From Haladaptatus sp. DJG-WS-42 (GTDB lineage Archaea > Halobacteriota > Halobacteria > Halobacteriales > Halococcaceae): a stretch of DNA of 24,000 nucleotides. Made by a program: the position numbers and the translations under genes. The notes below the pieces were generated by a model. The model searched no databases and was not told the origin of the DNA. It worked only from the letters and a program-made list of their open reading frames with translations. Positions 1 to 18,522 of this stretch are shown piece after piece. Position 1 is the first letter of the stretch. Every line of letters begins with the position of its first letter. The stretch spans positions 1,642,422 through 1,666,421 of the forward strand of contig NZ_CP147243.1 of NCBI RefSeq assembly GCF_037198285.1, read 5' to 3'.

Positions 1-599
1 TTAAGCCGACGGAGCAACGCTTCTTTAATATTTCCTGCTTCCGAAGACGCTTCGACCCTGTCGATGAGATCAGAGAGGTCGTAGTACTTACCGTAATCTT
101 CCTCTGCCTGTTCGATAACCCGGGCAAGGAGGCCTGACTGCGCTTGCGTCTCATCAATGTCGAGGAGAAATAGCCAATCACCGACGTCCAGCTCTGAGGG
201 GTAAAGTTCGAACCCTTTGTGGAAATATTCCTTTGCTTCCTCGTACTTATCCTCCAATCCAGCTGGATAATAGACAGAGACTGGGTACGACTGGGGGGAT
301 AGCCCCCAATCATTCAAACTATCTGATTCAGGATTCTCGACCTGCAAACTCCAGTAGATACCCATTGCATCTACGATGATGCCAGAAAGGTTTCCTTTGG
401 CCGCCGCTGGAAGAGTCATTAGCTCCTCCATTAGAACCCCTAGCGTGTGCGACTTGCCAGTTCCTCGCTTGCCACAAATGGTGACCATATGAGGGTTGTT
501 GAGATCTAGATACACGTCCTCGGTGAGTTCTCCATTAGTGTCAAATCTCCGACCGAGATACGCAGCGAGTTCTTCCTTGTCACCACCGATGAGCGTCAT
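1..599 (-). CDS. HerA/DUF87-like P-loop ATPase, N-terminal part only (3' end lies beyond the window)
   Basis: Hand translation of the minus strand from the ATG at 599-597 gives MTLIGGDKEELAAYLGRRFDTNGELTEDVYLDLNNPHMVTICGKRGTGKSHTLGVLMEELMTL... It has Walker A GKRGTGKS in the context typical of HerA/DUF87 ATPases. I checked positions 1-120 and 450-599 codon by codon and found no in-frame stop; the middle was only read through quickly. The ATG overlaps the TGA of the upstream 1286-aa gene (ATGA at 596-599). The gene is absent from the ORF track because it has no stop in the window. Confidence 0.7.
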   Translation of the reverse strand, partial: MTLIGGDKEELAAYLGRRFDTNGELTEDVYLDLNNPHMVTICGKRGTGKSHTLGVLMEELMTLPAAAKGNLSGIIVDAMGIYWSLQVENPESDSLNDWGLSPQSYPVSVYYPAGLEDKYEEAKEYFHKGFELYPSELDVGDWLFLLDIDETQAQSGLLARVIEQAEEDYGKYYDLSDLIDRVEASSEAGNIKEALLRRL

Positions 600-3500
600 T
601 GATCTCCACCCTCCTGTGTCCATCGTCTTATCAACACGGCCTGCATCATTTCCGCTGTATCAGAGTTGATATCGAGCGCTCTGACTAACTGACGTACCTC
701 CTCTTTGTTATTTAGGTCCTTGACGGCATCATTTAGGCTTGTTCCGGCGACCATTACCTTATCCGGGGAGACAGAACCGCCCAAGTCATGGATGATCTCT
801 TCGAGATCATTCTCGTCGAAGGAGGCTTCTGCGAGCTTCTTTTCTGTGTCAATCCACTGACCCCAGAGACTGTTGTACTGCTTGGCATCAAATTCACCAA
901 GAGACTGGTCCAGCATCTCGGAACATTGGTTGAGGAAGCGTTTCCCCCGATCAAGAAGTGCTTTCTCCCCTTCTGGAATTTGTGGCTCGTACACCTTGAG
1001 CTGTTCTCTCGCACGTTCTATTTTCTCTTCTTCTGTTTCGACGGCACTTGTAAAGCGAGACTGGAGGTTCTCTGAGTCTCTATCCAACAATTCCTGGTGT
1101 TCGGATGAATCGTACTGTTCAACGTTTGGGACGATTTGCCGCCGAGTACGACTGAGGTCCTCGTACACCATGCTGGAGTTAATTTCATCATCAATGAATC
1201 GTTGGATGGTACTCTCGATATCAGCACCTACGATAGATTGGTTGACATCGTGGCTGGCAAGATGGTCCCCAATGCTATCGATACACGAAATCTCGATACC
1301 GCCTGACTCGATATCAACATTACCGTTTATTAGTAAATCCAGGGTTTCCTTGCCAGAGATTACTGAATCCTTTTGACTGACAATATCTTTTGCCTCCTCA
1401 AGCTGTGCTACTAGATGTTCGAGCGAATCGTGGATTAGGAATGGTAGCCCTGCTTCAAATTCGTTGAAGTCGCGTACAGCACTGATGTAGTCCGATACAT
1501 CTGTCTCTGCATACACATCGTACGACTGTATGGTCCGGATACGCTGTTTTAGATTATCGGAATCAGTCGTGAAATCGGTCTCAAGATCCTTCTCAAGTCT
1601 CTTGAGGTCAGCGACGTCATCAATGTCATCCAACTCACCATACTGTTGCTTCAGTGATTCAAGTTTTGTGAGACCCTCGTTGTCAACTCTCCCTTGGAGG
1701 AGAGCTTCCCGCTTGATAGCATCGTGGTATGAGCTTTTTACACTCTCACGAACCACCGTGACTTTACTATCAGGGAGAATAATTTTATCATCAGTGTCAC
1801 CACCCAGCACGAATGGGGCACCATGAAGGCTAACTACCGCCAAGATAAGATACAGATATGCTTTTGCGACGGGTGCTACTTTTGAGGTCCCGAAAACAGT
1901 TTTGACGATCTCGCTGAAGCTTAATTCATCATTCTCCGCCTCTTTGAGTTCCTCCTCGAGTTTGTTGATTACCTTACGGGTACCTTCGCTGAATTCGTCT
2001 GTGACTTCGTAGGAGTCTCCGTCCTTCTTGAGGAACTGCTCTGACTCGAACTCAGAGAACATCTGTCTAAGCTCATCACCAGACTTCTTACCTCGGTCAA
2101 CATTCGGAATATTATTCATCGTTTTTTGAATATCAAAATCAATGCCCTCGTAGAGCAATTTTCCCTTCTCTTGGAGGTTTTTTGTTGCATAGACAAAATC
2201 AAGGACATCTCCCCCAATATGTCCATTCGAGAATCCGAGAAGTTCAGTGACGTATTCTCCATTTCCGTACTGCCCTTTAGCGTTCCTGGTCACGTACCTC
2301 AACACCGAGAACATTCTCTCCGGCGATGTGAGCGCACCTACTTCATCAGGTATCTCTCTCCCGAGGATATCAAGAAGGGAAATGTTGAGGAAAACTCGAT
2401 ATCGCTTGAATTCATCTTCCCCGGGATAGATGTCGTTAATGTATGCTAGAAGTGTGCTGGTACTATTTTCACTATCGATATGTTCATCGATTTGTCTGTT
2501 CAAATCATCTTGAATATCGTCAGAGATGTTTGAAGCTCTATTATGGAGTTCACGGACAACGAATTCAGCCGGACGCTTGTCGTCTTCGCTGGGGCCAAGA
2601 TGGATCCCAAATTTGAGTGCATCAGACTGTTTGATAGCCTCCCACTCTTCCGGAGGTCCCGATGTGCCAACTGAAAGGTACACTTTTTCTGTGTACTGAG
2701 TATCTCCGAGAACATCTATTTCTAGATAATTTGACCTGGAGATGATTTCAGAGCCTCCTTCGAGTTGGGTCTCCAGAGCATCTTTCCAGAGGTCCAGAGT
2801 ACTTTTGATATCTGCCTCGAAATTTTCAATTGTATCCTCGACAAGTTTCGACGTTGGTTTTGTTGGGTCCGTAGTCGCGTTACCTGTGAGTATGTTTTGG
2901 TAGAGCACCAAGTATTCGCCATCACGGTCGATATATTCTGATTGGGATGCTGCCTGCCGAGTTAATTCCTTGACGCTGGTGGTGAGTTCGATTTCAGCAT
3001 CCTTCGCAAGCTGCTCGACTTGTGCAGGAGAGAACAGTGCAGGTTGGTCGTTCCGATTTAGAATTGCTTCACGGGCGATAGCAGTAAGAATCCGTTGGAG
3101 CGAACGTGAGTCTGAATAGTCTTCCTCTATCTGTTCTTGAATCGTTCGTTCCCCAGGCAATTGGCTCAGTTCTGCCCGCTTGATTTTCCCTAATCGGTTA
3201 CGAACTGAATCACCATGCTTGTACAGATACTCCCCATCAATACGACTCTCTCCGTCCCATTCTCGAAGGAACGCCATGAGAATCGTTTTAAAAGCTCGAA
3301 ACGAAAGGACCACGCGATTGTCTCCATCCCCTGCTTTCTGGGAATCGACGACAGAGAGAACAATCTCGAGGGCATCGGTAGTAAATGGATAGGCGTAATC
3401 TTCATCTCCGGACTCGGCATTGTCGAGCGTTTCGTGCCACTCCGGAACCTCGTCACGATAGTCGGTGAGTAATGGATACGTGTAGAGATGATATAGTTCG

Positions 3501-4456
3501 GAGAACAGATGCATTGTCTCCCCTTGCGCGAGGTTAATGCTATAATTCACGCTACCTCTTATTCGATCAACCGTGTCCTCGGGAGCTTGGATGGAATCTT
3601 CAAGCTCCTCCAAACCAACCGAGTTAATGAAGAGAATGTATGGGGGCGCTTCCAAATTGGCGTGCGAGTCCACTGTGCTTCTCATCATCTCCCGGATGAG
3701 TCCTTTTAGGTCGCTTTTTTCGTTTGGCCCAATGCCGCGGAATGTCTGTTCAAACTCGTCAATGTAGAACGCGGGATATTTCCCTTCAGCCTCGTAGTAT
3801 TCTTCGGCAAACCAAGTGACTGTATGATGGGCACCAGACGCTGAGAGAGACTTACAGGCACGAGAAATGTCATCTATTGACTCGGGTTCGTCGAAGAGTT
3901 GTTTGAGTTCGTCGGAGAGTTTTGGAGGCAGGTTATCGTATCTATCTAGCGACAGCGTAGATTTCTCATCGTCGAACCGGTCTAGGAGAACGCGTTCTGT
4001 CAGTTTCTCAGACTTGAGCACCGATTCGTATATAGCGAGAAGCAGTTCGTTAGGCGTGTTGTTATCCTGAAGGCTAATCTGGAAACAGTCGATTTCTGTC
4101 TCGCCATAGGTGAGTTGTGGGAACTCGACACCTCCTATTTCGGTAGGACCTAGGCAAAGGTCGGCGACACATTTCATAAGGACTGTTTTACCAGAGCCAT
4201 AAGCACCGTGTAGAAATACCCCGGGTGTTTCCGTGGTCTGTAAGCGATTGTGGATACTGTTCAAAATCTCTTGGCGGCGGGGAGTGAGTATAAAATCCGA
4301 CTCGTTCTCAACGAATGCCTCGAAGGTAGGGAGGTCGTTCTCATTGATAAGTTTCTGACACTCCTGTCGAACCCGACGGATTGTTTGCTGATCGAGAACC
4401 TGTACAACTTTATCTCGAACATCTTCGTATGACTTCTGCTGTTGTGTCGAACTCAT
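596..4456 (-). CDS. Large (1286 aa) acidic P-loop NTPase, BrxC/PglY-like by size and PglZ neighbourhood
   Basis: This is an uninterrupted 3.9-kb ORF in AT-rich DNA. It has N-terminal Walker A GVFLHGAYGSGKTVLMK and a candidate Walker B AFYIDEFE. It lies in the same operon as a PglZ-domain gene, and its start codon overlaps the stop of the 104-aa gene (ATGA at 4453-4456). The family assignment is contextual and was not verified by alignment. Confidence 0.6.
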   Translation of the reverse strand: MSSTQQQKSYEDVRDKVVQVLDQQTIRRVRQECQKLINENDLPTFEAFVENESDFILTPRRQEILNSIHNRLQTTETPGVFLHGAYGSGKTVLMKCVADLCLGPTEIGGVEFPQLTYGETEIDCFQISLQDNNTPNELLLAIYESVLKSEKLTERVLLDRFDDEKSTLSLDRYDNLPPKLSDELKQLFDEPESIDDISRACKSLSASGAHHTVTWFAEEYYEAEGKYPAFYIDEFEQTFRGIGPNEKSDLKGLIREMMRSTVDSHANLEAPPYILFINSVGLEELEDSIQAPEDTVDRIRGSVNYSINLAQGETMHLFSELYHLYTYPLLTDYRDEVPEWHETLDNAESGDEDYAYPFTTDALEIVLSVVDSQKAGDGDNRVVLSFRAFKTILMAFLREWDGESRIDGEYLYKHGDSVRNRLGKIKRAELSQLPGERTIQEQIEEDYSDSRSLQRILTAIAREAILNRNDQPALFSPAQVEQLAKDAEIELTTSVKELTRQAASQSEYIDRDGEYLVLYQNILTGNATTDPTKPTSKLVEDTIENFEADIKSTLDLWKDALETQLEGGSEIISRSNYLEIDVLGDTQYTEKVYLSVGTSGPPEEWEAIKQSDALKFGIHLGPSEDDKRPAEFVVRELHNRASNISDDIQDDLNRQIDEHIDSENSTSTLLAYINDIYPGEDEFKRYRVFLNISLLDILGREIPDEVGALTSPERMFSVLRYVTRNAKGQYGNGEYVTELLGFSNGHIGGDVLDFVYATKNLQEKGKLLYEGIDFDIQKTMNNIPNVDRGKKSGDELRQMFSEFESEQFLKKDGDSYEVTDEFSEGTRKVINKLEEELKEAENDELSFSEIVKTVFGTSKVAPVAKAYLYLILAVVSLHGAPFVLGGDTDDKIILPDSKVTVVRESVKSSYHDAIKREALLQGRVDNEGLTKLESLKQQYGELDDIDDVADLKRLEKDLETDFTTDSDNLKQRIRTIQSYDVYAETDVSDYISAVRDFNEFEAGLPFLIHDSLEHLVAQLEEAKDIVSQKDSVISGKETLDLLINGNVDIESGGIEISCIDSIGDHLASHDVNQSIVGADIESTIQRFIDDEINSSMVYEDLSRTRRQIVPNVEQYDSSEHQELLDRDSENLQSRFTSAVETEEEKIERAREQLKVYEPQIPEGEKALLDRGKRFLNQCSEMLDQSLGEFDAKQYNSLWGQWIDTEKKLAEASFDENDLEEIIHDLGGSVSPDKVMVAGTSLNDAVKDLNNKEEVRQLVRALDINSDTAEMMQAVLIRRWTQEGGDQ

Positions 4457-8271: not shown

Positions 8272-8719
8272 GACATTAACGACCTAGCCGTACTAGTAAT
8301 ATTTTTATGAGATAGTATATCAAGCGACATAATATCTTCGGGTAGTCTCGAAGAAGCAGAACTAAGCAGAAAACTACGAATCTCCAGAACAACTCAAAGC
8401 CGGATAGTAATGTGTCGGCCTGAGAAAGGCGTGGCAAACATGACTTAGGTAAGTATTCCAGCTCAGACGGGGTTTTAATCTACACATCGTTAAATGTGAT
8501 TTTAGATGATGGTTATATTTTAGCATAATGTAGTGCCGTACGGCTCGAGGCAGAGTGTTGGTTTCCAATTCAAGACCAGGGGCTGAACCGTGCCTACTGA
8601 TGTTGTTCGAATTGGTCGCTCTGGTTATGTGACAGACCTACCTGCTGATACCTGTCTGTGTTAGACCTCACCGAGTTACGAAGGGCCTATTACATACAGA
8701 ATTGAATCACTGATAGAGA
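8272..8719. promoter_or_regulatory. Divergent promoter/control region between the PglZ operon and the TGT operon
   Basis: This is a 448-bp AT-rich non-coding spacer between divergent first genes. There are TATA-like A/T runs near both genes: ATAAAAATAT on the minus strand at about 8305-8316, and CTATTACATA at about 8685-8694, about 30 nt before the ATG at 8720. An inverted repeat ACAGAC...GTCTGT lies at about 8633-8660. Promoter positions are guesses. Confidence 0.35.
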
Positions 8720-10768
8720 ATGCGAGGCTTCCGAGTAAATCACCGAGGTGAAGACGGGTATGGGCGCCGAGGCCAACTCCACGTTCGGAGAGGACCTGTA
8801 GAGACACCCGCACTCTTCCCCGTGATAAACCTCATCGGAGGCAGCACCCTTGCGTCAGGTAGCGGATGGCGACATTTTAGAGATAACATCCTCCACACCG
8901 AAGAACTCCAAGGAACGATGTTTCAGGCTATGAGTTTCTTGGACTATGGTGTCACGGCCAACACACTTCGTCGGTGGCGGCAGCGCACATTTGAGGAGCA
9001 TCTTCAAAACTGGGATGAGTGGGATAAATCTAAACATATCAATTCTCCCATTTTTATCGACTCGGGTGGCTACCGCCTGATGAATTCGGATACGTTCGGT
9101 GAAGCGCCTACAGAGGGTGGTGCTGAGAATGAATGGGGAATTTATACCAATCCGGATAGTGTCCTGAAATTGCAAGTAGATTTTGGCGGGGACATTTTTG
9201 CGACATTAGACTACCCTATTCCCCCAGATCTTAAAGAAGATGAGCAAGATGAGCGGATGGAACGCAGCATTGAGAGCGCTGTTCGTTGTTTAAAACTAAT
9301 AGATGACCCTGACAAGATCGAAATTCTGGAAGATGGGGATGAGAAAACCGTTGAGCGCTTGAAAAATAGAAAAGCAGCTGACGAAGAACCAGCCGTCTTT
9401 GTCGCGATCCATGGCCACGATCATGAGACGATTCATTGGTATGTTTCTGAGTTCTTAGAACGAGCAAAAGAAGAGGGAGTAAGTGACCAGTTCCACGGCT
9501 TTGCTATCGGCTCGTTGGTTCCGCTACGTTCGAAGATTGATGTTCTAGTCGATATCGTCCAGGGTGCCACCGAAGCGATCGGAGACCGAGACGATATCGC
9601 ACTTCACGTATTCGGTATTGGAGGCAAGCAGGCATCCCTATTGTCATTACTTGGGGTTGACACATTTGATTGCTCCAGCCATATGCAATCTGCTCGCTTC
9701 AAAAAATACCTCGTACCGGAAACGTGGGACAACGTAAAACTCAAAGATATTGACAACTATCTGACTAGTGGTGGATGGCCCTGTAACGTACCAGAATGCC
9801 CGTTGTGTAGTAATTCGACAGAATTGATCCCAGATGAGTTCATGAGTTATGTCGATTCTGAGGATGGGATATCTCCTCAGAAATTTAAGGAACTGATATA
9901 CAGAGAAGCGACGTATGGTCAAGATGGGTTCACAAAGGGATGGCTGTACGGCTTGCTTGCCCGTCACAACTTTTCGGTATATAATCGAGAGATGCAGCGT
10001 GTGCGGAACGCAATTGATGAGAATTGGTTGCTCGACTATGTCATTCAGTGGGCTCGCAAAGACGATCAAATTGAGCGTGGACTAAAGCGAGCTCAACTTA
10101 GGAATCCAGAACTTGAAGCAGAGCTGAAATCACGCGAGGCATATGACCTACTTTTAGGCTCTGAAATTGCAACCGACCAAGTGAAACTCTCTGAGTTCGG
10201 TGCCGATTTCCCTGAGGTGGAATCTAACCGGATCTCGCTGAAACATACTCCACGAGATTTCAATATTGCGAACAAGGACTACGATCCACATCGTGACGAT
10301 AGTTCTAATAAAGACATTCTACTGATTATTCCATGTAGCCAGCGAAAGCCCTACTCTGAATCTCGTACACACAAAGCTGTGCTCAACAGACTGGAGCCAG
10401 TGAGAGATCGAATCCATAAAGTTACAATCTCTGGTATGTATGGCCCAGTTCCAGAGACAGAGGAAACAGCAGACGCTGTGCTGGAATACGAATATGTTCT
10501 GGCCAAACAAGATACAGAACAAATTGAACTCGTGACAGAACGCCTGGTTGATTACCTGCGAACTCACGGTGATTCATTCGACACCATTGTCAGCTATGCT
10601 GTGAGTAAGCAGTACCGGCAAGTCATCGAGAAAGCGTTCAGTGAATACGGACGAGGAAGTGTATTCCCAACGGATCCTGAAATGTTAGGATTCAAACAGC
10701 ATTACAAGCGAGAGAATATACGTGAGTTACAAGAATTCCTAAGCGTTCCTGAGCAAGAATTGATTTAA
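8720..10768 (+). CDS. TGT-fold (tRNA-guanine transglycosylase superfamily) enzyme fused to an ArcS-type C-terminal domain, 682 aa
   Basis: The N-terminus is typical of TGTs (RRGPVETPALFPVINL). TGT catalytic-type motifs are IFIDSGGYRL, HGFAIGSLVP and HVFGIGGKQASLLSLLGVDTFDCSS, plus a Cys cluster CNVPECPLC. The C-terminal domain carries PCSQRKPYSESRTH (10331-10372). This matches exactly the PC-X3-KPY-X2-S-X2-H signature reported for archaeosine synthase ArcS. Confidence 0.8.
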   Translation: MRGFRVNHRGEDGYGRRGQLHVRRGPVETPALFPVINLIGGSTLASGSGWRHFRDNILHTEELQGTMFQAMSFLDYGVTANTLRRWRQRTFEEHLQNWDEWDKSKHINSPIFIDSGGYRLMNSDTFGEAPTEGGAENEWGIYTNPDSVLKLQVDFGGDIFATLDYPIPPDLKEDEQDERMERSIESAVRCLKLIDDPDKIEILEDGDEKTVERLKNRKAADEEPAVFVAIHGHDHETIHWYVSEFLERAKEEGVSDQFHGFAIGSLVPLRSKIDVLVDIVQGATEAIGDRDDIALHVFGIGGKQASLLSLLGVDTFDCSSHMQSARFKKYLVPETWDNVKLKDIDNYLTSGGWPCNVPECPLCSNSTELIPDEFMSYVDSEDGISPQKFKELIYREATYGQDGFTKGWLYGLLARHNFSVYNREMQRVRNAIDENWLLDYVIQWARKDDQIERGLKRAQLRNPELEAELKSREAYDLLLGSEIATDQVKLSEFGADFPEVESNRISLKHTPRDFNIANKDYDPHRDDSSNKDILLIIPCSQRKPYSESRTHKAVLNRLEPVRDRIHKVTISGMYGPVPETEETADAVLEYEYVLAKQDTEQIELVTERLVDYLRTHGDSFDTIVSYAVSKQYRQVIEKAFSEYGRGSVFPTDPEMLGFKQHYKRENIRELQEFLSVPEQELI

Positions 10769-10842
10769 TTTAGACTTTGATCTACCTACGACTCAAGTAG
10801 TACTGTCGGAAGAATTAAGACATCTTGGTCTGACTTTCCGTT

Positions 10843-11286
10843 ATGTCGACTCTGCTGGTTCAGTCCTGCTCTAAATCAAAGAATTCACCAGGGAGAGCGG
10901 TTCCTGCGATGGAATTGTATTCTGGATATTACTACAAAATTATCAAAAAAGCGAGAAGAGAAGGGGATCTTAGATCGGATATTGACATCTGTATCCTCTC
11001 CGCAAAATATGGACTAATTGATGCAAACGCAGAGATTACAGAGTACGATCAGAAGATGAATCGGGTGCAGGCTCTCGATTTGCAGGAGGATGTCGAAACA
11101 ACCCTAATCAAGAAATTGAAAGAGAATAATTATAAAAAAGTCGTCATTAATGCAGGTGAAGATTATCGAGTTGCACTTAAAAGATTCATTCAGAATTCTG
11201 ATATTGAAGTCGAGGTATTACACGGTCAGCTCGGAGAACGTGGAAGCGTTCTGAAAAAGATGATTCGTGAATCACAGAACACATAA
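10843..11286 (+). CDS. Small stand-alone paralog of the ArcS-type C-domain (DUF6884/DUF5591-like), 147 aa
   Basis: The motif order is shared with residues about 535-650 of the upstream protein: LLVQSCSKSK vs LLIIPCSQRK, ILSAKYGLI vs ISGMYGPV, and ITEYDQKM vs VLEYEYVL. It lacks the KPY..S..H part of the signature. The domain-family name is from memory and was not searched. Confidence 0.55.
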   Translation: MSTLLVQSCSKSKNSPGRAVPAMELYSGYYYKIIKKARREGDLRSDIDICILSAKYGLIDANAEITEYDQKMNRVQALDLQEDVETTLIKKLKENNYKKVVINAGEDYRVALKRFIQNSDIEVEVLHGQLGERGSVLKKMIRESQNT

Positions 11287-11289
11287 CAA

Positions 11290-12537
11290 ATGCCAGATTT
11301 AACTCAACGCAGCAAGTATGCTGACTTTTCCATAACGTCGACTGCTGGAGAAGCACGCACTGGAGAGTTAGTAGTAGGTGAGAAAAAATTTGAAACACCC
11401 ATGCTCTTCCCTGTCATCAATTTCTATGGTGGTGGGAGAAAAGGGAGCCTATTTGGAGGAAGCACCCACAGAACAGTAAAAGAGCTTATTAATGGGGATG
11501 ACTGCGTCGGCGGCGTTTCTTGCAGCGAATATTTCCCGGGCTCTATGCTTTCAGTTGGGTCGCTAACTGACTATGGAATCAGCGAATCTTTACTGAAGAC
11601 GTATCTGGAGAAACCAATTAGCGAAAGACCGGAATTCTCTGGATTTGAGGGATTGTTATTCGTCGACTCTGGTGGGTTCAAAAATCTCTCACAAGGCGGT
11701 TTAGACGGCTCTGATTTTCAGATGGAACTCAACCAACACCGCGTGTTCGACATGCAACGTCAGCTTGGTGGTGACATCCTCGTCAACCTCGACCTCCCGA
11801 TTACCGAGGATGACACGTATGAAGAACGCATCGAGAAAGCAAAAACAACAGCAGAAAATGCAGTTGAATTTGCTCGGCACACTCAATCATACCCATGTGC
11901 TGCGTATCTTTCTGTCCATGGCTATGATTATTCGATGATCGATACCTTCTTTGAGCAAGTCGAATCCGTGTTTGGTTCTCTCGATTTGACTGAGATATTT
12001 GATGGAATTGCCTTGGGAAGCCTTGTACCAAAAAAGGACAACAAGTCTACTCTCATCGAAGCGATTTCTGGTTGTAAGCAGGTGATGGCTGAACGAGGCT
12101 TTGAGAATCATCCATTACACGTGCTAGGGATCTCCGGGAAATCGATGCCACTGTTAGTTGGGCTGGGCGTAGATAGCTTTGATTCGTCATCCTACATTCA
12201 AGCCGCGATCAATGGAAAATACTACACGTCTTTCTTGGAGACTGAACGCGTTGATGACGTTGATTTGACTAAGTGCGACTGCCCAGTCTGCTCTTCACCC
12301 CTTCTTCGGGAACGGATGAAAGGGAACGCCGAGTATCGAAAGGACCAGATGGGCCCTGTTGCTGTCCATAATATGATTATCCAGCAAAAGGAGTTGTCGA
12401 GAATGCGCAAACTGATTCAGAGCGGTCCGGAAGCCTTCGTGGATTATCTTGGAAACGAACTCGGACGTCACCGGTCAGTCGGACGATATGCCCACGATGT
12501 TGTTAACAAATCATTCGGAGGATACGATGGAATATAA
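11290..12537 (+). CDS. Compact TGT/DpdA-like transglycosylase, 415 aa
   Basis: The N-terminus is ARTGELVVGEKKFETPMLFPVINF. Motifs LFVDSGGFKN, DGIALGSLVP and HVLGISGKSMPLLVGLGVDSFDSSS are present. It has a canonical zinc site CDCPVCS-X-H: Cys codons at 12274, 12280 and 12289, and His at 12367, giving exactly 25 intervening residues as in bacterial TGT C318/C320/C323/H349. It has no PUA or other C-terminal tRNA-binding extension. It starts 3 nt after the previous stop. Confidence 0.8.
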   Translation: MPDLTQRSKYADFSITSTAGEARTGELVVGEKKFETPMLFPVINFYGGGRKGSLFGGSTHRTVKELINGDDCVGGVSCSEYFPGSMLSVGSLTDYGISESLLKTYLEKPISERPEFSGFEGLLFVDSGGFKNLSQGGLDGSDFQMELNQHRVFDMQRQLGGDILVNLDLPITEDDTYEERIEKAKTTAENAVEFARHTQSYPCAAYLSVHGYDYSMIDTFFEQVESVFGSLDLTEIFDGIALGSLVPKKDNKSTLIEAISGCKQVMAERGFENHPLHVLGISGKSMPLLVGLGVDSFDSSSYIQAAINGKYYTSFLETERVDDVDLTKCDCPVCSSPLLRERMKGNAEYRKDQMGPVAVHNMIIQQKELSRMRKLIQSGPEAFVDYLGNELGRHRSVGRYAHDVVNKSFGGYDGI

Positions 12538-14095
12538 ACCAAAAGTCAACGAAATCAACGAATTCCTGGAAATTGCAAGCGACTTTGAGGATCCGTTAGA
12601 ACTAATCAGAGAGTCACTATCCAACTCTTACGATGCCGGTGCAACTGATGTGTTAATCCGGATTCGAACTGGAGCAACTGGATCTGACATTACTATCGAA
12701 GATGATGGCGAAGGCATGAGTCAGCGAGACTTGGAGTCTTTCTTCGACTTAGGTAACTCCAGAAAGACAGATGGGATCGGGTACAAAGGCCACGGGACCA
12801 AAATATTCTACAAAAGCGATGGAATTAAAGTAAATACTAGCAAGAACAAAAAAACGCTTCATGCGGAGATGGAGCAACCTTGGGAGAAGCTCAATAACCG
12901 TGAGTTACCAACCTATTCGGTCACTGAACACGATGCCCCAGCGGAGCGGTCTGGAACACAAATAAAGATTCAAGGGTTCAAGTCTGGGGAAGGGTTTAGC
13001 CCTGAATCACTCACCTACAACAAAATCCACAACTATCTGAAGTGGAAGACGATTGCGGGCTCAACTGGTCACTTCTTCGAAGACGATTCACGAGAAATGA
13101 ACATCACCGTCGATCTCGATTCTGGGATCGATGACACAATGGATGAGCTTCAAACGACGAATCACTTTGAGTTCCCCCGTGAGCAATTGCGCCCTGGCAC
13201 AGGTGACTTCCCAGAGGAGCGAATGTGCAAGCACTATGGCCCAATAGAGCTCGAAGTTCCCTTCGATGGTGGTCATACTACATTAGAGATCGTCGGAATG
13301 GTTGGCGGGAAGGCGGCTCGAAATGAGTTGCCAACATACGGTCGACACTCAACGCAGTTCGGTATCTGGCTTGCAAAAGATCATATCAAAATTGAGCGGC
13401 TCAACGAAGCGATCTCTCACGATAACGAATTCATTCATTTCTTATTCGTTGCAAATTGCCAAGATATCGAACTCTCAGCGAACCGAGGGAAGATTCGAAA
13501 TAAGGCGAGCAAAGTTTACCAGACAATAGAAGAAGAGCTCAACCATTACCTCTCAAAAGTTGCTCGCGACCCATGGTTCAAGGAGTATCTGGAAATTCGA
13601 AAGCGAGCCAGCATTTCTCGACAGGCGCAGACGCATTCAGAATCGGTTTCTCAGAGAAAGGAACGGATTCACTCTCGTAATTCATTTGAGCCCACAAACG
13701 TGGCTGAGGTCCTTTTAGGACTCCAGCATTCGAACCGCTTTGAATCAAACAACACGGTTACGATCGAAGACTACCAGCCAGCAGAAGAGGTTGAGGCAAT
13801 CGTTCGTATTGGAGATGACCTCTTGGGTTCCTCACTGCAACAAGCGGTCGTGGATTTCTTCGACTCTGGAACTCCCCTGGGCTCTACTGAACAAATCATC
13901 GCATGGGAACTCGGGGACCTTGATAAGTTGCGTGAGATTGAACGAAAAGGTTACTTAGACGCTGAAATTGAATGTGACTTCGACAAGCCTGAAGTTCGAT
14001 ATATGCGCAACGGAAAAACCGAGCACATCGATATCCTGCTCGTTAAACCTCGGTTCCACAGAACAGATCAATTGGCCCAGACACTGGCTGAATGA
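12527..14095 (+). CDS. GHKL (HATPase_c / MORC-like) ATPase
   Basis: Bergerat-fold motifs are present: N-box RESLSNSYDAGA, G1 IEDDGEGM and G2 GYKGHGTK. I prefer the ATG at 12527 (MEYKPKVNEINEF). It overlaps the upstream gene by 11 nt. The ORF-track start at 12449 would overlap by 89 nt. Confidence 0.8.
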   Translation: MEYKPKVNEINEFLEIASDFEDPLELIRESLSNSYDAGATDVLIRIRTGATGSDITIEDDGEGMSQRDLESFFDLGNSRKTDGIGYKGHGTKIFYKSDGIKVNTSKNKKTLHAEMEQPWEKLNNRELPTYSVTEHDAPAERSGTQIKIQGFKSGEGFSPESLTYNKIHNYLKWKTIAGSTGHFFEDDSREMNITVDLDSGIDDTMDELQTTNHFEFPREQLRPGTGDFPEERMCKHYGPIELEVPFDGGHTTLEIVGMVGGKAARNELPTYGRHSTQFGIWLAKDHIKIERLNEAISHDNEFIHFLFVANCQDIELSANRGKIRNKASKVYQTIEEELNHYLSKVARDPWFKEYLEIRKRASISRQAQTHSESVSQRKERIHSRNSFEPTNVAEVLLGLQHSNRFESNNTVTIEDYQPAEEVEAIVRIGDDLLGSSLQQAVVDFFDSGTPLGSTEQIIAWELGDLDKLREIERKGYLDAEIECDFDKPEVRYMRNGKTEHIDILLVKPRFHRTDQLAQTLAE

Positions 14096-14097
14096 CG

Positions 14098-15252
14098 CTA
14101 TAATCGCTTAACCCACGGATTATTTTCAGGCTCAAACTCACTCTTTTTCCCCGAATAGGAAGCTGTACTATCATCTAGGATACCTAAGTGGACCAATTGG
14201 CGAGTGAAATTAAATAAGATATTTGACCGAACTAAAGATCTCCACGTGTCTGTATTGTATATCTCTTCTCTCTGATCGTTTCTCAATAATTCCCTCGCAG
14301 TCTCCGTATTGGTCACAAATAGGTTCAGAAATACGTTCGGATACTGTTCGACTACTGTTCGAAGAAGTTCAGTGAAGACGAATTCACGGTTCTGCTGATT
14401 CACAGCCTCTACAAATTGTCTGAAATCTGGGTGCCGCTGATATGCGGTTCGCAGTAGTACTGCTAAGGAAGGAATTTCGTCGATTAAAGGACTATAGTTG
14501 ATGTCCTGCTTTTTTGATGCTAGGTCGTCCAGCGTTTCAATCCCTTCGCCACGGAGAGTACTCTTTGCAAGTTTTCCATGCTCTGAAAGAGAGAAGGTAC
14601 TTTCTCCATCTTTGGAAAGGAACCCACACAAGCTCGCTCCCTTGATAGTATATTTCGCAGTGGACTGGGCAACACCATATTTTTGAATAATTTCGGATTC
14701 AAGTTTGGACCGGCTTGTTAATTCAGAGATTGCCAGTACCGGTGCATATGCATTCAATGGCTGTGTCAAATACAGAGTTGAGACAACAGAGCTACTCCCA
14801 GGATGAGAGAATTGATACTTGACCCGCGACTGAACGTCAGATACCTGAGCCGCGTCTATCTCAGTAGCTGGCTCGTTCCATGAAACTGCCCCTGTGCTCG
14901 TTGTCGAGATTGTCCCTGCGCCATGGCTCAGCAGCACGTCCTCTACTCTTTTTAGATCACTGTGAGGAGCGGCGAGATAGCTCAAATGGGACCCACGTTG
15001 GTACGTTAGAGTTTGGCCGACTCCTTTGAGGAGGTCCTTGCTTCCCTTAACCTCTATTGCAAATACTTGACCTCGACCAGTTTGCCCAATGATATCTGGG
15101 TACCGGCCATCAATCGTTATTGAGTGCGGATTCGCCCGTTTCAGAACGTTACTGTATGTGTTGTAGTGGCTGCCTGGAACATGCACAAGGAAATCCCAAC
15201 CACGAGTAGAAAGTTCGTCTACAACCGTTTCAAAAACATCCGATTCCTCCAT
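14098..15252 (-). CDS. Putative PD-(D/E)xK nuclease-fold protein with a long C-terminal extension, 384 aa
   Basis: The N-terminal region has E13, then YPD53IIG followed by VFAIE67VK69G. The spacing and hydrophobic context are typical of the restriction-endonuclease-like fold. The C-terminal approximately 250 aa are unassigned. The stop codon lies 2 bp from the GHKL gene stop. Confidence 0.55.
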   Translation of the reverse strand: MEESDVFETVVDELSTRGWDFLVHVPGSHYNTYSNVLKRANPHSITIDGRYPDIIGQTGRGQVFAIEVKGSKDLLKGVGQTLTYQRGSHLSYLAAPHSDLKRVEDVLLSHGAGTISTTSTGAVSWNEPATEIDAAQVSDVQSRVKYQFSHPGSSSVVSTLYLTQPLNAYAPVLAISELTSRSKLESEIIQKYGVAQSTAKYTIKGASLCGFLSKDGESTFSLSEHGKLAKSTLRGEGIETLDDLASKKQDINYSPLIDEIPSLAVLLRTAYQRHPDFRQFVEAVNQQNREFVFTELLRTVVEQYPNVFLNLFVTNTETARELLRNDQREEIYNTDTWRSLVRSNILFNFTRQLVHLGILDDSTASYSGKKSEFEPENNPWVKRL

Positions 15253-15430: not shown

Positions 15431-16438
15431 TCAGATGTTGTCGAGAAATCCCCTCCGTTGTTCCATCTTATCGCGCTCTCCTCGCTGATCGTAATGCTTC
15501 TCAATCACGTCTGGACTCACATTCGCCCGGTCGCTGACCACGCGCTCTGGTACATCTTCGGACAGCCAGTACGTAATCGCGCCGCGCCGCACGTGTGGTG
15601 AGCGGCTTGATGGACACCGAGACACTGAATTACGATTCGTCGCCTCACACGTCTCGACGTCTCTGTCGTGCGGACATCCATCGGTGTAGAAGCACGGACG
15701 GGTCACCTCGTAGATGATGTGTTGAATGGTACTGTGGTGGAGTCGCCCTTGCTTCGATGCCAGCAGTGGCTCTCGTCCGGCATCGTCGGTTACGTCGGGA
15801 CGCTGGTCGGCCAGCCAGTCATCCAGCAACTCACACATCTCGTCCGAAAGCGCGACGTAACGCTCCCCTGACTCCTGGTTGTTCAGGGGAATTCCCGTGT
15901 CCTTCCGGTGGACAGTCTGGATGTACTGCTCCTCCGAGTCGTAGTCGTGAACGTCGAGTGCGTACATCGCCCCGCGGCGCATCGCTGTCCGCCACGCAAG
16001 TGTCAGGATGACGTGCCGGACCGAGGCGTATCGGTACATCTCAAGATACGTGAGTACTTGCTCGGCTCGCTCGGCGTCGAGCATCTCGGTTCGCACGGCG
16101 TCGCTCGCCGAGAGGATTGGCAGTTGGACCTTCGTGTGGAGGTCGGGGTCGACTGCATCGATGGATTCGAGGAACTTGATAAACACGCGGATGGTGACCA
16201 TCTGGGTCTTCTCGGAGACTTTGGACAGATCTCCGTCGTTTCTCCGCCAGATGCGGTACTCGTAGAGCGTCCGTCCGGTGAGATTGTTCAGGTTCTCGAT
16301 GTTCTGGTCGTGACACCATCCAACGAAGTACCGAAGTCGGGAGCGGTGTGACTGCAGGGTCTGGACGGCGACTTCGTTCCGGCGATGGTCGAGATACAGT
16401 TCGAGTGCGCGCTCGGGTGCGATTGGTTCGAGTGTCAT
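15431..16438 (-). CDS. Tyrosine recombinase / phage-type integrase (XerC/D-like), 335 aa
   Basis: It has an N-terminal SAM-like core-binding region (LELYLDHRRNEVAVQTLQSHRSRLRYF). The catalytic motifs are AWRTAMRRGAMYALDVHD (Arg), SPHVRRGAITYW (H-x-x-R) and VIEKHY (Tyr). It is GC-rich, unlike the adjacent island. Confidence 0.9.
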   Translation of the reverse strand: MTLEPIAPERALELYLDHRRNEVAVQTLQSHRSRLRYFVGWCHDQNIENLNNLTGRTLYEYRIWRRNDGDLSKVSEKTQMVTIRVFIKFLESIDAVDPDLHTKVQLPILSASDAVRTEMLDAERAEQVLTYLEMYRYASVRHVILTLAWRTAMRRGAMYALDVHDYDSEEQYIQTVHRKDTGIPLNNQESGERYVALSDEMCELLDDWLADQRPDVTDDAGREPLLASKQGRLHHSTIQHIIYEVTRPCFYTDGCPHDRDVETCEATNRNSVSRCPSSRSPHVRRGAITYWLSEDVPERVVSDRANVSPDVIEKHYDQRGERDKMEQRRGFLDNI

Positions 16439-16459: not shown

Positions 16460-16803
16460 ATCTCACGACTGGGCAGACCGCAGCTAGCCGGACCCAATTT
16501 TGACGGGAGATGTTGTTTTTCGTTCGTGGGTCGAACTTTCTCCCGTCGGGTCCGTTCGATTTTGTGGCGATTCGGAATCACTCGACAGCGCCTCCCCCTT
16601 ATAAATTCTCTCAGAATTCTGAGGGGAGAGTCCGCCACGCAGCATACCGCCTGCGTTTCGCGGGCCTGCTGGCCATCGGTTTGCAGAGAGTATGAGGCGT
16701 CAAAGCTTCATCTCTATTTTGACCCACTCCAGCACAGGTTGTCCGGCCACAACACCCGTGAACCACCCCCCAGTATTTCCAGTTGCTTGACGTCTGTTGC
16801 GGT

Positions 16804-17604
16804 ATGGCAGAAAAGTCAACTGAACAACTCGAATACGAATGTGCGGGTCTGCTCAAAGAATTTGGCTTTACTGAGTACGAAGCGTACACGTTTGTCTACC
16901 TGCTCCGGCTTGGACAGGGGACGGCAAAGGACATCGCAGCGGTGGATAGTGTGCCCCGCACCCGCGTCTACGATGCGGTTGATGTCCTCCACGAGGCCGG
17001 ACTGGTCGATATCCAGTACACAACACCCCGGAAATTCACGGCCGTGTCACGGGAAACGGCACTCCGCAAACTCGAACTCCAGCGCGAGAACACCATCTCG
17101 GAGTTGAGCGAGCTGTTCGACCAACTCACACCTGCTGACCACCGTTCCGAAGAGTTTGGCGTCTGGACGGTCTCGGGTCACGACGCAGTCGCCAGTCGCA
17201 TCTTTGAGTTCATCGACAACGCCGAAGACGAACTCGTCTACATGACCGTCGATTCATTACTCACTGACAAGCACATAGACCAGCTCCGTGCCGCAGAAGC
17301 CCGAGGCGTTGACATCTATCTCGCTGGCATCTCAGAACCCGTCCAAGCCCGTCTCCAAGACGAGATTCCCACAGCGGAACTCTTCGAGACGCTGTGGGCG
17401 TGGGCCGAGATGGGTGCGGGAAGCCTCCTCTTTACGGATAAACAAACCGCACTCGTGAGTGTCCTCGTCGATGGCGATTCCACGGCCGAACCCGACGAAA
17501 CGGCGATTTGGGGAACGGGTGCGCGAAACAGCCTCGTCGTGGTCCTGCGCGCCATCTTCACGTGGCGACTTGGAGACGAGCTGCGCCCCTCCGGTGAGGG
17601 ATAA
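16804..17604 (+). CDS. TrmB-family transcriptional regulator
   Basis: The N-terminal wHTH is typical of TrmB: FGFTEYEAYTFVYLLRLGQGTAKDIAAVDSVPRTRVYDAVDVLHEAGLVDIQYTTPRKFTAV. I prefer the ATG at 16804 (MAEKSTEQ) to the track start at 16783. Confidence 0.8.
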   Translation: MAEKSTEQLEYECAGLLKEFGFTEYEAYTFVYLLRLGQGTAKDIAAVDSVPRTRVYDAVDVLHEAGLVDIQYTTPRKFTAVSRETALRKLELQRENTISELSELFDQLTPADHRSEEFGVWTVSGHDAVASRIFEFIDNAEDELVYMTVDSLLTDKHIDQLRAAEARGVDIYLAGISEPVQARLQDEIPTAELFETLWAWAEMGAGSLLFTDKQTALVSVLVDGDSTAEPDETAIWGTGARNSLVVVLRAIFTWRLGDELRPSGEG

Positions 17605-17919
17605 GAATCGCTCTTGGGTGAGGCACTTGAAGCAATCCAGTCGGTCGAAGACGGTCATGCTCGCGGCAAAGGCGTCATCACTGTTTAGGTGAGAGAAAGT
17701 TGGAAAATCAGCCGTGGTGATGGTGGTTCATTTAACTTCGCGTGAACTCAGCACGGTTTATTCAAGAAGAGCTTTCCTGAGTTTGAGATTCAATCTATGT
17801 TTAACGGAGAGTGACAAATTCACGCAATCTTTTTCTAATTAGAAATTGTCATTTTGTTTGTTGTGCCCTTCTCACCATTTACGCCTATAAAAATCATCCA
17901 AACAGAAATTCACAATTGG

Positions 17920-18522
17920 ATGACGCCAAGAGACGAAGAAGACAGGCTCCATTCTCAACTCCGAGGTGGACAGTACGAGTTTGTTATTGAAAATAATGGT
18001 GTGTCTCAGGAAGTATCACTTTCTATCGAAAATATTGGCTGGCACACTAAGGATACAGTAAAGATTGAACTCCGGGTTCGGAACTATGGATGTCCAACGT
18101 CGATAAAAGAGTGGAAGGAGGACCTCATCTATCTATATATAACAACATATCTTCGTGGGAAGGACAGTGCCAAAGAATTGGCCACGCCTCTTCTTTCGAA
18201 CATAGAAATAGGAGGGTTCAGCAATCAAGATATTCGAATTAGTATGTTTGTGTATACTACTTTCCCATCTGGAATTTGGGATGCCGTTGGACGAATTGCT
18301 AACTTGATTTCTCTGTACCATAGCGACCACTTCCAATATCTAAAACAAATATATCAAGAGAAGGGTGACCAGTACCAAGAAACAAGCGAAGTAATTGATT
18401 TGCAGGATGGTGCAGAACTGGCTCAACATTCAGAAAACCAAACTTATATTCAGGCTTTTGGATATCTCACCGATTATTTTGAATACAAGTTAAATGATGG
18501 AACTGCTGACAAAAATCTATGA
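17920..18522 (+). CDS. Hypothetical protein in a low-GC patch
   Basis: This is the only long ORF in the AT-rich 17690-18535 segment. The track start at 17854 is a non-ATG codon (ttg), and the first ATG is at 17920 (MTPRDEED). I recognised no motifs. Confidence 0.5.
   Translation: MTPRDEEDRLHSQLRGGQYEFVIENNGVSQEVSLSIENIGWHTKDTVKIELRVRNYGCPTSIKEWKEDLIYLYITTYLRGKDSAKELATPLLSNIEIGGFSNQDIRISMFVYTTFPSGIWDAVGRIANLISLYHSDHFQYLKQIYQEKGDQYQETSEVIDLQDGAELAQHSENQTYIQAFGYLTDYFEYKLNDGTADKNL

Follow-up and report, generated by a model that had tools for sequence, protein, structure and literature searches.

The presence of 7-deazaguanine in DNA is documented for bacteria, by way of Dpd systems, and for phages and archaeal viruses. 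In Salmonella Montevideo, the bacterial Dpd system comprises DpdA, DpdB and DpdC for modification and DpdD-K for restriction; DpdA requires the DpdB ATPase, and DpdC turns dPreQ0 into dADG (PMC10164549). In Vibrio phage nt-1, an ArcS2 protein consisting of DUF5591 only acts together with DpdA2 to give dG+ in DNA (PMC10516641). A third type of system, BREX-Related Capture (BRC), was described in 2026 and consists of PglZ, DUF6079, a STAND NTPase, DUF4007 and HerA/FtsK, with or without a GNAT protein and a tRNA-guanine transglycosylase (TGT); according to that paper (PMC12839542), only some of the loci, haloarchaeal ones among them, include GNAT and TGT, 7-deazaguanine is proposed as a self-mark, and homologues of DpdB or DpdC are stated to be absent. 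This study concerns a 24,000-nucleotide (nt) stretch of the Haladaptatus sp. DJG-WS-42 genome (contig NZ_CP147243.1, positions 1,642,422 to 1,666,421; hereafter the window), which carries a DUF6884-TGT-GHKL gene cassette next to a gene for a second TGT fused to the DUF5591 core of ArcS. A full-text literature search over incomplete coverage returned neither a DUF6884-TGT-GHKL cassette nor deazaguanine in the genomic DNA of cellular archaea.

The operon at positions 8720-14095, together with the adjacent gene u384, is probably the modification half of an archaeal Dpd-like defence island that would write 7-deazaguanine into the DNA of its own cell. The initial annotation of the window had put forward the two TGT genes as a candidate 7-deazaguanine DNA-modification module. 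That proposal, in which DNA is the presumed substrate, is now supported by an operon conserved across 35 loci, by associated preQ0 and DpdJ/DpdK-like genes and by carriage on plasmids. Both TGT genes had been recognised correctly, but the 147-amino-acid (aa) DUF6884 gene between them had been overlooked, and the GHKL gene, listed as a neighbour, is in fact part of the core. A scan with one genome per GTDB species yielded 33 loci from halo- and nanohaloarchaea; together with the window and a metagenomic locus, they were compared by open reading frame (ORF) calling, BLAST and protein clustering. The order DUF6884>TGT>GHKL and its orientation are kept in 35/35 loci, with DUF6884 directly upstream of the TGT and GHKL directly downstream, overlapping it or within 9 nt; throughout the trio, genes overlap or are separated by no more than 9 nt, two DUF6884-TGT gaps of 30 nt being the exceptions. 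The TGT-DUF5591 fusion gene is found within 10 kb in 31 of the 35 loci, at variable positions and orientations. DUF6884, TGT and GHKL form the functional core. The pairing of TGT with DUF6884 is kept even in relatives of approximately 33% identity (L062, L067), near a helicase or near BglII-like and PLD nucleases, and distant TGT-DUF5591 fusions adjoin HerA or QueD. In the window, the mechanically called GHKL start (TTG 12449) is too early; ATG 12527 coincides with the start of the 522-aa NCBI protein and with the onset of family conservation, and gives an 11-nt overlap with the end of the TGT gene.

Pfam assigns a TGT domain and DUF5591 to the 682-aa protein (1.9e-29 and 2.1e-15, respectively) and a TGT domain and nothing else to the 415-aa protein (3.3e-24), in agreement with the initial view of two TGT-fold enzymes, one bearing an ArcS-type domain and the other reduced to the catalytic domain. 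No PUA or C2/C3 tRNA-binding domain was found in either protein with Pfam and NCBIfam, or in the structural model of the fusion. The catalytic motifs quoted in the initial annotation are all present and could be located exactly. In the fusion, IDSGGY (aa 113-118) and DTFDCSS (aa 314-320) keep D114 and D314/D317 in the TGT barrel, and CNVPECPLC (aa 355-363, C-x4-C-x2-C) with H416 forms a zinc site with the ligands C355/C360/C363/H416. The 415-aa protein has VDSGGF (aa 125-130) and DSFDSSS (aa 295-301), with D126, D168 and D295/D298, and the predicted CxCxxC-X25-H zinc site is present as CDCPVC-x25-H (aa 329-360; C329/C331/C334/H360). These residues of the 415-aa protein are invariant across 28 homologues, and TGT motif residues are invariant or at least 90% conserved in the family alignments. 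When both proteins are placed on the P. horikoshii ArcTGT 1IQ8 (phmmer), their motifs fall on the VDSG, FDS, CxCxxC and HN positions, which in the Pyrococcus enzyme comprise the two catalytic residues, Asp95 and Asp249, and a Cys3-His zinc site; the fusion was also aligned to AF0587 (2Q07).

Besides the Asp pair and the zinc ligands, both TGT domains keep the LDxP substrate Asp and a GSLVP pocket motif. The pocket motif of bacterial TGT is LAVGE (Z. mobilis), unlike GSLVP. The latter is similar to GGVVP of ArcTGT, a position tied to specificity for preQ0 over preQ1 (PMC5699537), and this likeness fits preQ0 as the TGT substrate. The C1 signature of ArcS, defined as PC-X3-KPY-X2-S-X2-H (PMC10516641; PMC5699537), is present in the fusion as PCSQRKPYSESRTH (aa 538-551); P, C, S, K, P, Y and S of this region are invariant in the fusion family, and H is not. 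The AlphaFold 2 (AF2) model of the fusion (pLDDT 80), in which the TGT barrel matches bacterial TGT with a TM of 0.75-0.80, suggests a layout of TGT barrel, helical region, low-confidence or disordered linker (aa 482-509) and C-terminal DUF5591 core. Publicly, the fusion is annotated as 648 aa (P0121), which is 34 residues short of the ORF (window 8720-8821). As the omitted N-terminus is conserved family-wide and aligns to ArcTGT residues 13-41, translation probably begins further upstream than annotated.

Both proteins fall short of the TgtA, ArcS and DpdA family cut-offs. Against NCBIfam cut-offs of 350 bits for TgtA (TIGR00432), 440 bits for ArcS (NF040592) and 200 bits for DpdA (NF041059), the TgtA model scores 116.6 bits for the 415-aa protein and 98.1 bits for the 682-aa protein, and the ArcS model scores 82 bits for the fusion, mostly over the C1 core (aa 529-642). 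The initial annotation ascribed a DpdA-like architecture to the 415-aa protein, and this holds insofar as two catalytic Asp residues (D126/D298, and D114/D317 in the fusion) occur without a PUA domain; it does not extend to DpdA family membership, since the 415-aa protein scores only 30.2 bits with the DpdA model, the fusion has no match to it in NCBIfam, and the PADLOC DpdA match (3.4e-8) is a partial alignment. An exhaustive HMMER search of 1.84 billion representative proteins gave 478 relatives, the closest being proteins of 375-450 aa with a TGT domain only and numerous TGT fusions of 600-700 aa with PCxxxKPY. None of 16 scanned non-canonical relatives reaches the TgtA, ArcS or DpdA cut-off, while four relatives score as canonical TgtA (421-545 bits) and group apart as a clade of their own in a neighbour-joining tree. 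In this tree, the 415-aa and 682-aa families occupy one clade each, outside canonical TgtA. A housekeeping ArcTGT/ArcS identity was rejected on the basis of the equivalog scores, the tree, the absent PUA domains and the sporadic distribution, and membership of the bacterial/phage DpdA family is not supported by the scores and by an empty search of phage records. Judged from its sequence, the 415-aa TGT is a separate ArcTGT-derived lineage, presumably DpdA-like in action and not a DpdA family member, and it is a candidate DNA guanine/preQ0 transglycosylase.

Likeness to the housekeeping ArcTGT/ArcS enzymes (which act with RaSEA) is confined to the TGT barrel, the Asp pair, the zinc site, the pocket motif and the ArcS C1 motif; the cassette proteins differ in having no C2, C3 or PUA domains, low scores and a separate clade, and the cassette itself is sporadic, low in GC, mobile and has no RaSEA-type gene nearby, QueE being the sole recurring radical-SAM gene within 10 kb. 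It could be argued that both proteins are accessory tRNA-modifying paralogues, serving extra tRNA positions or foreign tRNAs, with a coincidental location in a defence island: ArcTGT provides both the nearest solved structure and the top-scoring family model, conservation extends to the ArcS motif, and multisite and split ArcTGTs are known. This explanation is hardly credible in view of the missing PUA and C2/C3 tRNA-binding domains, scores far under the equivalog cut-offs and a position outside the canonical clade. The strict coupling of the TGT to a MutL/MORC-like ATPase and to a DUF6884 protein of DNA-binding type, the sporadic distribution that includes plasmids, and neighbours that encode DNA helicases and nucleases and no translation proteins, as was first noted for the window and now holds across loci, also speak against it.

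The 147-aa protein is a clear member of DUF6884 (PF21818; 1.8e-16, 60.9 bits against a cut-off of 30). According to the Pfam curators, DUF6884 proteins are YaaA-like, with a DNA-binding cleft, predicted base flipping, and CxxxK and LSAxxG motifs (PMC11701544). Both motifs are present, as C9-S-K-S-K13 and L52-S-A-K-Y-G57, and their C, K, S, A and G residues are invariant in 35 homologues. Secondary Pfam matches are weak, namely, to YaaA (25 bits against a gathering score of 29.6; E 1.5e-5) and DUF5591 (4.5e-3); PADLOC reports PDC-M57A (1.8e-15) and DpdC (1.2e-6, aa 13-70 only), and a sequence search of the PDB gave nothing useful. DpdC belongs to the YaaA family DUF328 (PF03883) in the cited literature. 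With hhalign, DUF6884 aligns weakly with the DUF5591 domain of the fusion (E 0.016) over its full length, placing CS..K on PCS..KPY and LSAxxG on ISGMYG. This alignment would make the operon two units of one design, one split (DUF6884 and TGT) and the other fused (TGT-DUF5591). The DUF6884 protein thus appears distantly related both to YaaA/DpdC (DUF328) and to the ArcS C1 core; it is a candidate enzyme for the nitrile of preQ0 in DNA.

The third core protein matches HATPase_c_3 in Pfam (2.1e-12) and contains the motifs ExLSNxxDA, DxGxGM and GYKGHGTK, the Bergerat motifs being invariant in 34 homologues. Its AF2 model (pLDDT 80) matches Hsp90, MutL-LN40, MORC and GyrB43 in Foldseek (E 1e-11 to 1e-13) over approximately 400 residues spanning the GHKL and transducer domains; an unassigned beta-rich C-terminal domain follows at approximately aa 410-523. 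The fold is thus one shared with ATPases that act on DNA (MutL, MORC, GyrB). A nuclease domain was considered and rejected, as the model comprises GHKL, transducer and C-terminal domains with no recognisable nuclease, and an NCBIfam match to BbrUII/HgiDII is weak and restricted to the ATPase part. By analogy, the protein is proposed to be an ATP-driven partner of the TGT and a functional counterpart of DpdB.

The genes that recur around the cassette encode preQ0 synthesis and restriction-type functions. The cassette has queC (Pfam 1e-74), queE and queD as neighbours in 12-14 loci, folE (GTP cyclohydrolase I) in three and a Vut_1 (YhhQ-family) transporter gene in five. YhhQ imports preQ0 and preQ1. 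An approximately 1,350-aa helicase (best PADLOC match DpdJ, 2.4e-44) and an adjacent PLD protein (best match DpdK, 3.1e-12) are encoded in 11 loci, a GIY-YIG protein in nine, u384 homologues in 10/35, a 160-aa PD-(D/E)xK-like protein in 10, a four-gene module without family matches in 7-9, and an operon for PglZ, 255-aa, 104-aa, large NTPase and HerA proteins in 5/35, including the window; pAgo and GmrSD genes are also neighbours at various loci. The 160-aa protein, which has a VD...ELEWRR motif and no family match, accompanies the cassette or que genes (e.g., L005 3285-3767, minus strand, and nine further loci). The four-gene module (approximately 304, 277, 975 and 233 aa) is found at L014 1427-6798 and L003 2-5103, and also in L005, L010, L015, L019 and L036; it has no Pfam matches and a single weak PADLOC match (ZorA, to the 233-aa protein), is sometimes accompanied by a 1,574-aa DEAD/Helicase_C/MZB (DruE-like) helicase, and may be another restriction module.

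These neighbours also bear on the direction of the presumed base exchange. TGT chemistry is a reversible exchange of bases, so that the TGT-fold and DUF6884 proteins could be imagined as a defence effector that recognises 7-deazaguanine in halovirus genomes and excises or exchanges it. Suitable targets exist, as haloviruses such as HVTV-1 have dPreQ1 in their DNA, and bacterial defence glycosylases act against 7-deazaguanine-modified phage DNA (bioRxiv 10.1101/2025.10.29.685425). Nevertheless, such a role is very unlikely: the preQ0 synthesis genes in 12-14 loci and the Vut_1/YhhQ-family transporter in five favour supply and insertion of a base over its removal, and the intact ArcS-type and DpdC-like nitrile-processing domains suit the maturation of an inserted base.

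The cassette is mobile. Over the window, GC content is 0.42-0.50 from position 1 to approximately 15,300 and 0.58-0.64 from approximately 18,500 on; both TGT genes lie in DNA of 44-48% GC next to host DNA of 58-64% GC, and an integrase gene is located at the edge of the low-GC region. The acquired origin suggested by the initial annotation thus finds backing in base composition, the integrase, plasmid carriage and a DNA block shared with another genus. This block (Table 1) is 6.6 kb long, has 75% nucleotide identity to Salinigranum sp. (blastn) and contains exactly the fusion, DUF6884, TGT, GHKL and u384 genes. Because the flanks differ, with the PglZ operon in the window and a DpdJ/K-like pair in Salinigranum, the five genes are regarded as a mobile unit. 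A 15.9-kb element that contains the PglZ operon, queC/E/D and the TGT cassette is found with 99.2% identity on a Halorussus halobius scaffold (L030 1-15878) and on Halorubrum xinjiangense plasmid p1 (L031 1-15877), which suggests that it has passed between haloarchaeal families very recently. The cassette is also carried on further plasmids; its distribution is sporadic and covers at least 33 species representatives, including several cultured type strains.

Several related loci extend this picture. Two Nanohaloarchaeota metagenome-assembled genomes (L028, L029) contain the DUF6884-TGT-GHKL trio at approximately 50% identity, one of them also with HerA, the large NTPase and PglZ, which suggests that the cassette has been exchanged between Nanohaloarchaeota symbionts and haloarchaea. 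On a plasmid of Haladaptatus sp. YSMS36 (NZ_CP119784; L068), the trio is accompanied by the DpdJ/K-like pair, by another large DEAD helicase and by a 1,493-aa AAA protein; two separate genes of fusion size are annotated there as tRNA-guanine transglycosylase, one encoding 654 aa and the other continuing beyond the region analysed. A different island on a Halorientalis litorea plasmid (NZ_CP095485, 129774-139292; L069) has queC-folE-queE-queD followed by genes for a 967-aa TGT-family protein, a 344-aa TGT (27% identical to that of the window), a hypothetical protein and a 'BREX system ATP-binding domain' protein; distant TGTs of this kind are also found on plasmids of Natronosalvus, Haloferax alexandrinus and Salinigranum marinum.

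Mobility of this kind would likewise be expected if the cassette protected the mobile element itself (anti-restriction) or were a stand-alone epigenetic module, with no dedicated restriction partner and with the nuclease and PglZ genes as mere co-residents of the island. Phage DpdA, que and ArcS2 systems operate in this way, and the cassette is found on plasmids and in integrase-flanked islands, crosses genera and has variable partners, no nuclease module being universal. This interpretation is nonetheless considered unlikely. Restriction-type partners recur, as seen for the DpdJ/DpdK-like pair in 11 loci, u384 is transferred together with the cassette, and the 15.9-kb element with PglZ operon and cassette travels as one piece. 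Moreover, the cassette TGT family has no match among 50,697 phage genome records and two distant ones only (28% identity) in IMG/VR, results on which a provirus or halovirus origin was also rejected.

Table 1. Positions of the cassette genes and of other features in the window
Feature	Position	Strand	Basis
TGT + ArcS-core (DUF5591) fusion, 682 aa	8720-10768	+	ORF call, Pfam
DUF6884 protein, 147 aa	10843-11286	+	Between both TGT genes; Pfam
Catalytic-domain-only TGT, 415 aa	11290-12537	+	ORF call, Pfam
GHKL (Bergerat-fold) ATPase, 522 aa	12527-14095	+	Pfam, structure match
u384, 384-aa protein with PD-x13-E-x-K motif	14098-15252	-	Conserved residues
Five-gene colinear block common with Salinigranum sp.	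8676-15237		blastn against locus L004
PglZ/alkaline-phosphatase-superfamily protein, 917 aa	5518-8271	-	First gene of divergent PglZ-HerA operon
PglZ-operon protein, 255 aa	4767-5534	-	Homologues at related loci
PglZ-operon protein, 104 aa	4453-4767	-	No family match; kept in L030 and L031
Large protein, 1286 aa, N-terminal P-loop NTPase	596-4456	-	Weak Pfam AAA_16
HerA/DUF87 ATPase, N-terminal part	1-623	-	Gene continues beyond window start
Tyrosine recombinase/integrase	15431-16438	-	Pfam Phage_integrase and SAM-like domains; NCBIfam XerC/D-like

The neighbours named in the initial annotation, i.e., a nuclease-fold gene, the GHKL ATPase, a PglZ operon and an integrase, are borne out by the u384 motif, Pfam and Foldseek (Table 1). 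In u384, the residues P52, D53, E67, K69 and G70 of the N-terminal PD-x13-E-x-K motif are conserved; no family match (Pfam, NCBIfam, PADLOC) and no PDB sequence match were obtained, and the protein is a candidate restriction or effector partner with a predicted PD-(D/E)xK nuclease-like fold. The 917-aa protein matches Phosphodiest (4.6e-8) and, under the gathering score, PglZ (1.2e-3). In L002, the homologue of the 255-aa protein ends in a winged-helix-like DUF7343 domain. The 1286-aa protein, whose AAA_16 match (6.2e-5) is under the cut-off, is encoded at the BrxC position of BREX operons and has homologues in L008, L029, L030 and L031, the same loci in which homologues of the PglZ operon adjoin the cassette. 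The HerA N-terminus contains the Walker A sequence GKRGTGKS and shares 68% identity with the L002 DUF87 protein. The PglZ-HerA operon is accordingly a candidate BREX-related restriction module, as far as can be predicted from its protein families. To the right of the integrase, a TrmB-family regulator gene (16783-17604) and a 222-aa ORF of low GC (approximately 0.44) without family match (17854-18522) precede the high-GC host DNA, so that this edge of the island is not sharply defined. Searches of the window for tRNA genes and att sites were negative, and a promoter/terminator scan, which is built for bacteria and not applicable to archaea, was at background.

With BRC (PMC12839542), the window shares the co-occurrence of PglZ, HerA, a TGT and a large P-loop NTPase in one island. 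As TGT is already listed in that paper as an occasional component of BRC systems, archaeal ones among them, a link between TGT and BREX-like genes is not entirely unprecedented. The differences are that the window has no detectable DUF6079 or DUF4007 (Pfam at E<=5), no STAND NTPase (a Walker-A protein of approximately 170 aa) and no GNAT gene, and that the cassette is free of PglZ-HerA in 30/35 loci. On the absence of DUF6079 and DUF4007 in relaxed Pfam scans, BRC membership of the PglZ operon was rejected. The portion of the BRC paper that could be consulted contains neither the DUF6884-TGT-GHKL cassette nor the fusion with the ArcS core.

The closest functional parallel is with bacterial Dpd systems. 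Both have a PUA-less TGT paralogue that resides in a mobile island, an ATPase that invariably accompanies it, a partner of the YaaA superfamily (DUF328 in DpdC, DUF6884 here) and, in some clusters, preQ0 genes, and a DpdJ-like helicase with a DpdK-like PLD nuclease is present in 11/35 of the related loci. In contrast, the cassette TGT is of ArcTGT lineage and not of the DpdA family, the ParB-like DpdB is replaced by a GHKL/MutL-MORC ATPase (the window has no ParB-like gene), DpdC has approximately 310 aa whereas the DUF6884 protein has 147, and the archaeal cassette has an additional TGT and ArcS-C1 fusion. Its partners in the window are PglZ-HerA and a PD-(D/E)xK-like protein instead of DpdD-K. 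The viral DpdA and ArcS2 pairs (Vibrio phage nt-1, Sulfolobus virus STSV2; PMC10516641) similarly combine a TGT, which acts on DNA in the viruses, with a PUA-less DUF5591 core in which the ArcS motif is kept. There, however, DUF5591 stands alone, whereas in the cassette it is fused to a second intact TGT, and the cassette is cellular, with GHKL and DUF6884 partners and restriction-type genes in its company.

Based on these parallels, the following mechanism is proposed. preQ0 would be supplied by the archaeosine pathway of the host, related loci (12-14) bringing their own que genes, and the 415-aa TGT would exchange guanine in DNA for preQ0 by means of its Asp pair and zinc site. The co-translated, MutL/MORC-like GHKL clamp might provide ATP-dependent access to DNA or turnover, as DpdB does for DpdA. 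The DUF6884 protein would then flip the inserted base and convert its nitrile, the likely product being an amide (dADG) or an amidine. The 682-aa fusion, as a second self-contained unit, would probably convert dPreQ0 into an archaeosine-type amidine (dG+ or a lysine adduct); alternatively, it may insert and then convert the base at other sites. The resulting mark would separate self from foreign DNA for interchangeable restriction modules, which in the window may be u384 and the divergent operon for PglZ, the large P-loop NTPase and HerA, and elsewhere DpdJ/DpdK-like helicases with PLD nucleases, GIY-YIG proteins and others. A bolder version, with a small but real chance of being correct, is that the island encodes two writers, one split (DUF6884, TGT and GHKL) and one fused (TGT and ArcS core), that each would install a different 7-deazaguanine, the marks being read by PglZ-HerA; one of the bases could then be new to DNA, e.g., a preQ0-lysine or amidine adduct made without RaSEA.

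Several observations weigh against writing of 7-deazaguanine into DNA by this cassette. Domain identities, conserved catalytic residues, gene order and distribution are documented directly by the sequences, whereas DNA as the substrate is argued from genomic context and analogy, and so are the identity of the base, the roles of the individual proteins and the coupling to restriction. Both TGTs are nearer in sequence to the tRNA-acting ArcTGT than to any proven DNA-acting DpdA, and tRNA is the substrate of known split ArcTGTs that have no PUA domain (PMC11298593). Separate housekeeping tgtA and arcS genes in this genome are presumed to exist, given that archaeosine is nearly universal in archaeal tRNA (PMC5485725; PMC10164549) and that the cassette is distributed sporadically. 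The homology of DUF6884 is weak both to DpdC (E 1e-6 over a partial alignment) and to DUF5591 (hhalign E 0.016), and the analogy between GHKL and DpdB draws on gene position. The window contains no que genes and no DpdJ/DpdK homologues, two catalytically intact TGT domains in one cassette lack an explanation, and functional coupling to PglZ in the window is uncertain because the operon accompanies the cassette in only 5/35 loci.

The cassette nevertheless is a concrete, conserved and testable candidate for deazaguanine in the DNA of cellular archaea. If the proposed function is true, the marking of DNA by guanine exchange would have been assembled independently from the archaeosine tRNA toolkit, and DUF6884 would gain a function. 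If the two-writer version should hold, 7-deazaguanine would become a third kind of self-mark in the BREX family, after methylation and phosphorothioation. The repeated pairing of the cassette with varied restriction modules (DpdJ/K-like genes, PglZ-HerA, small nucleases) offers a natural system in which to ask how unrelated effectors, including BREX-type machinery, would read one and the same self-mark.

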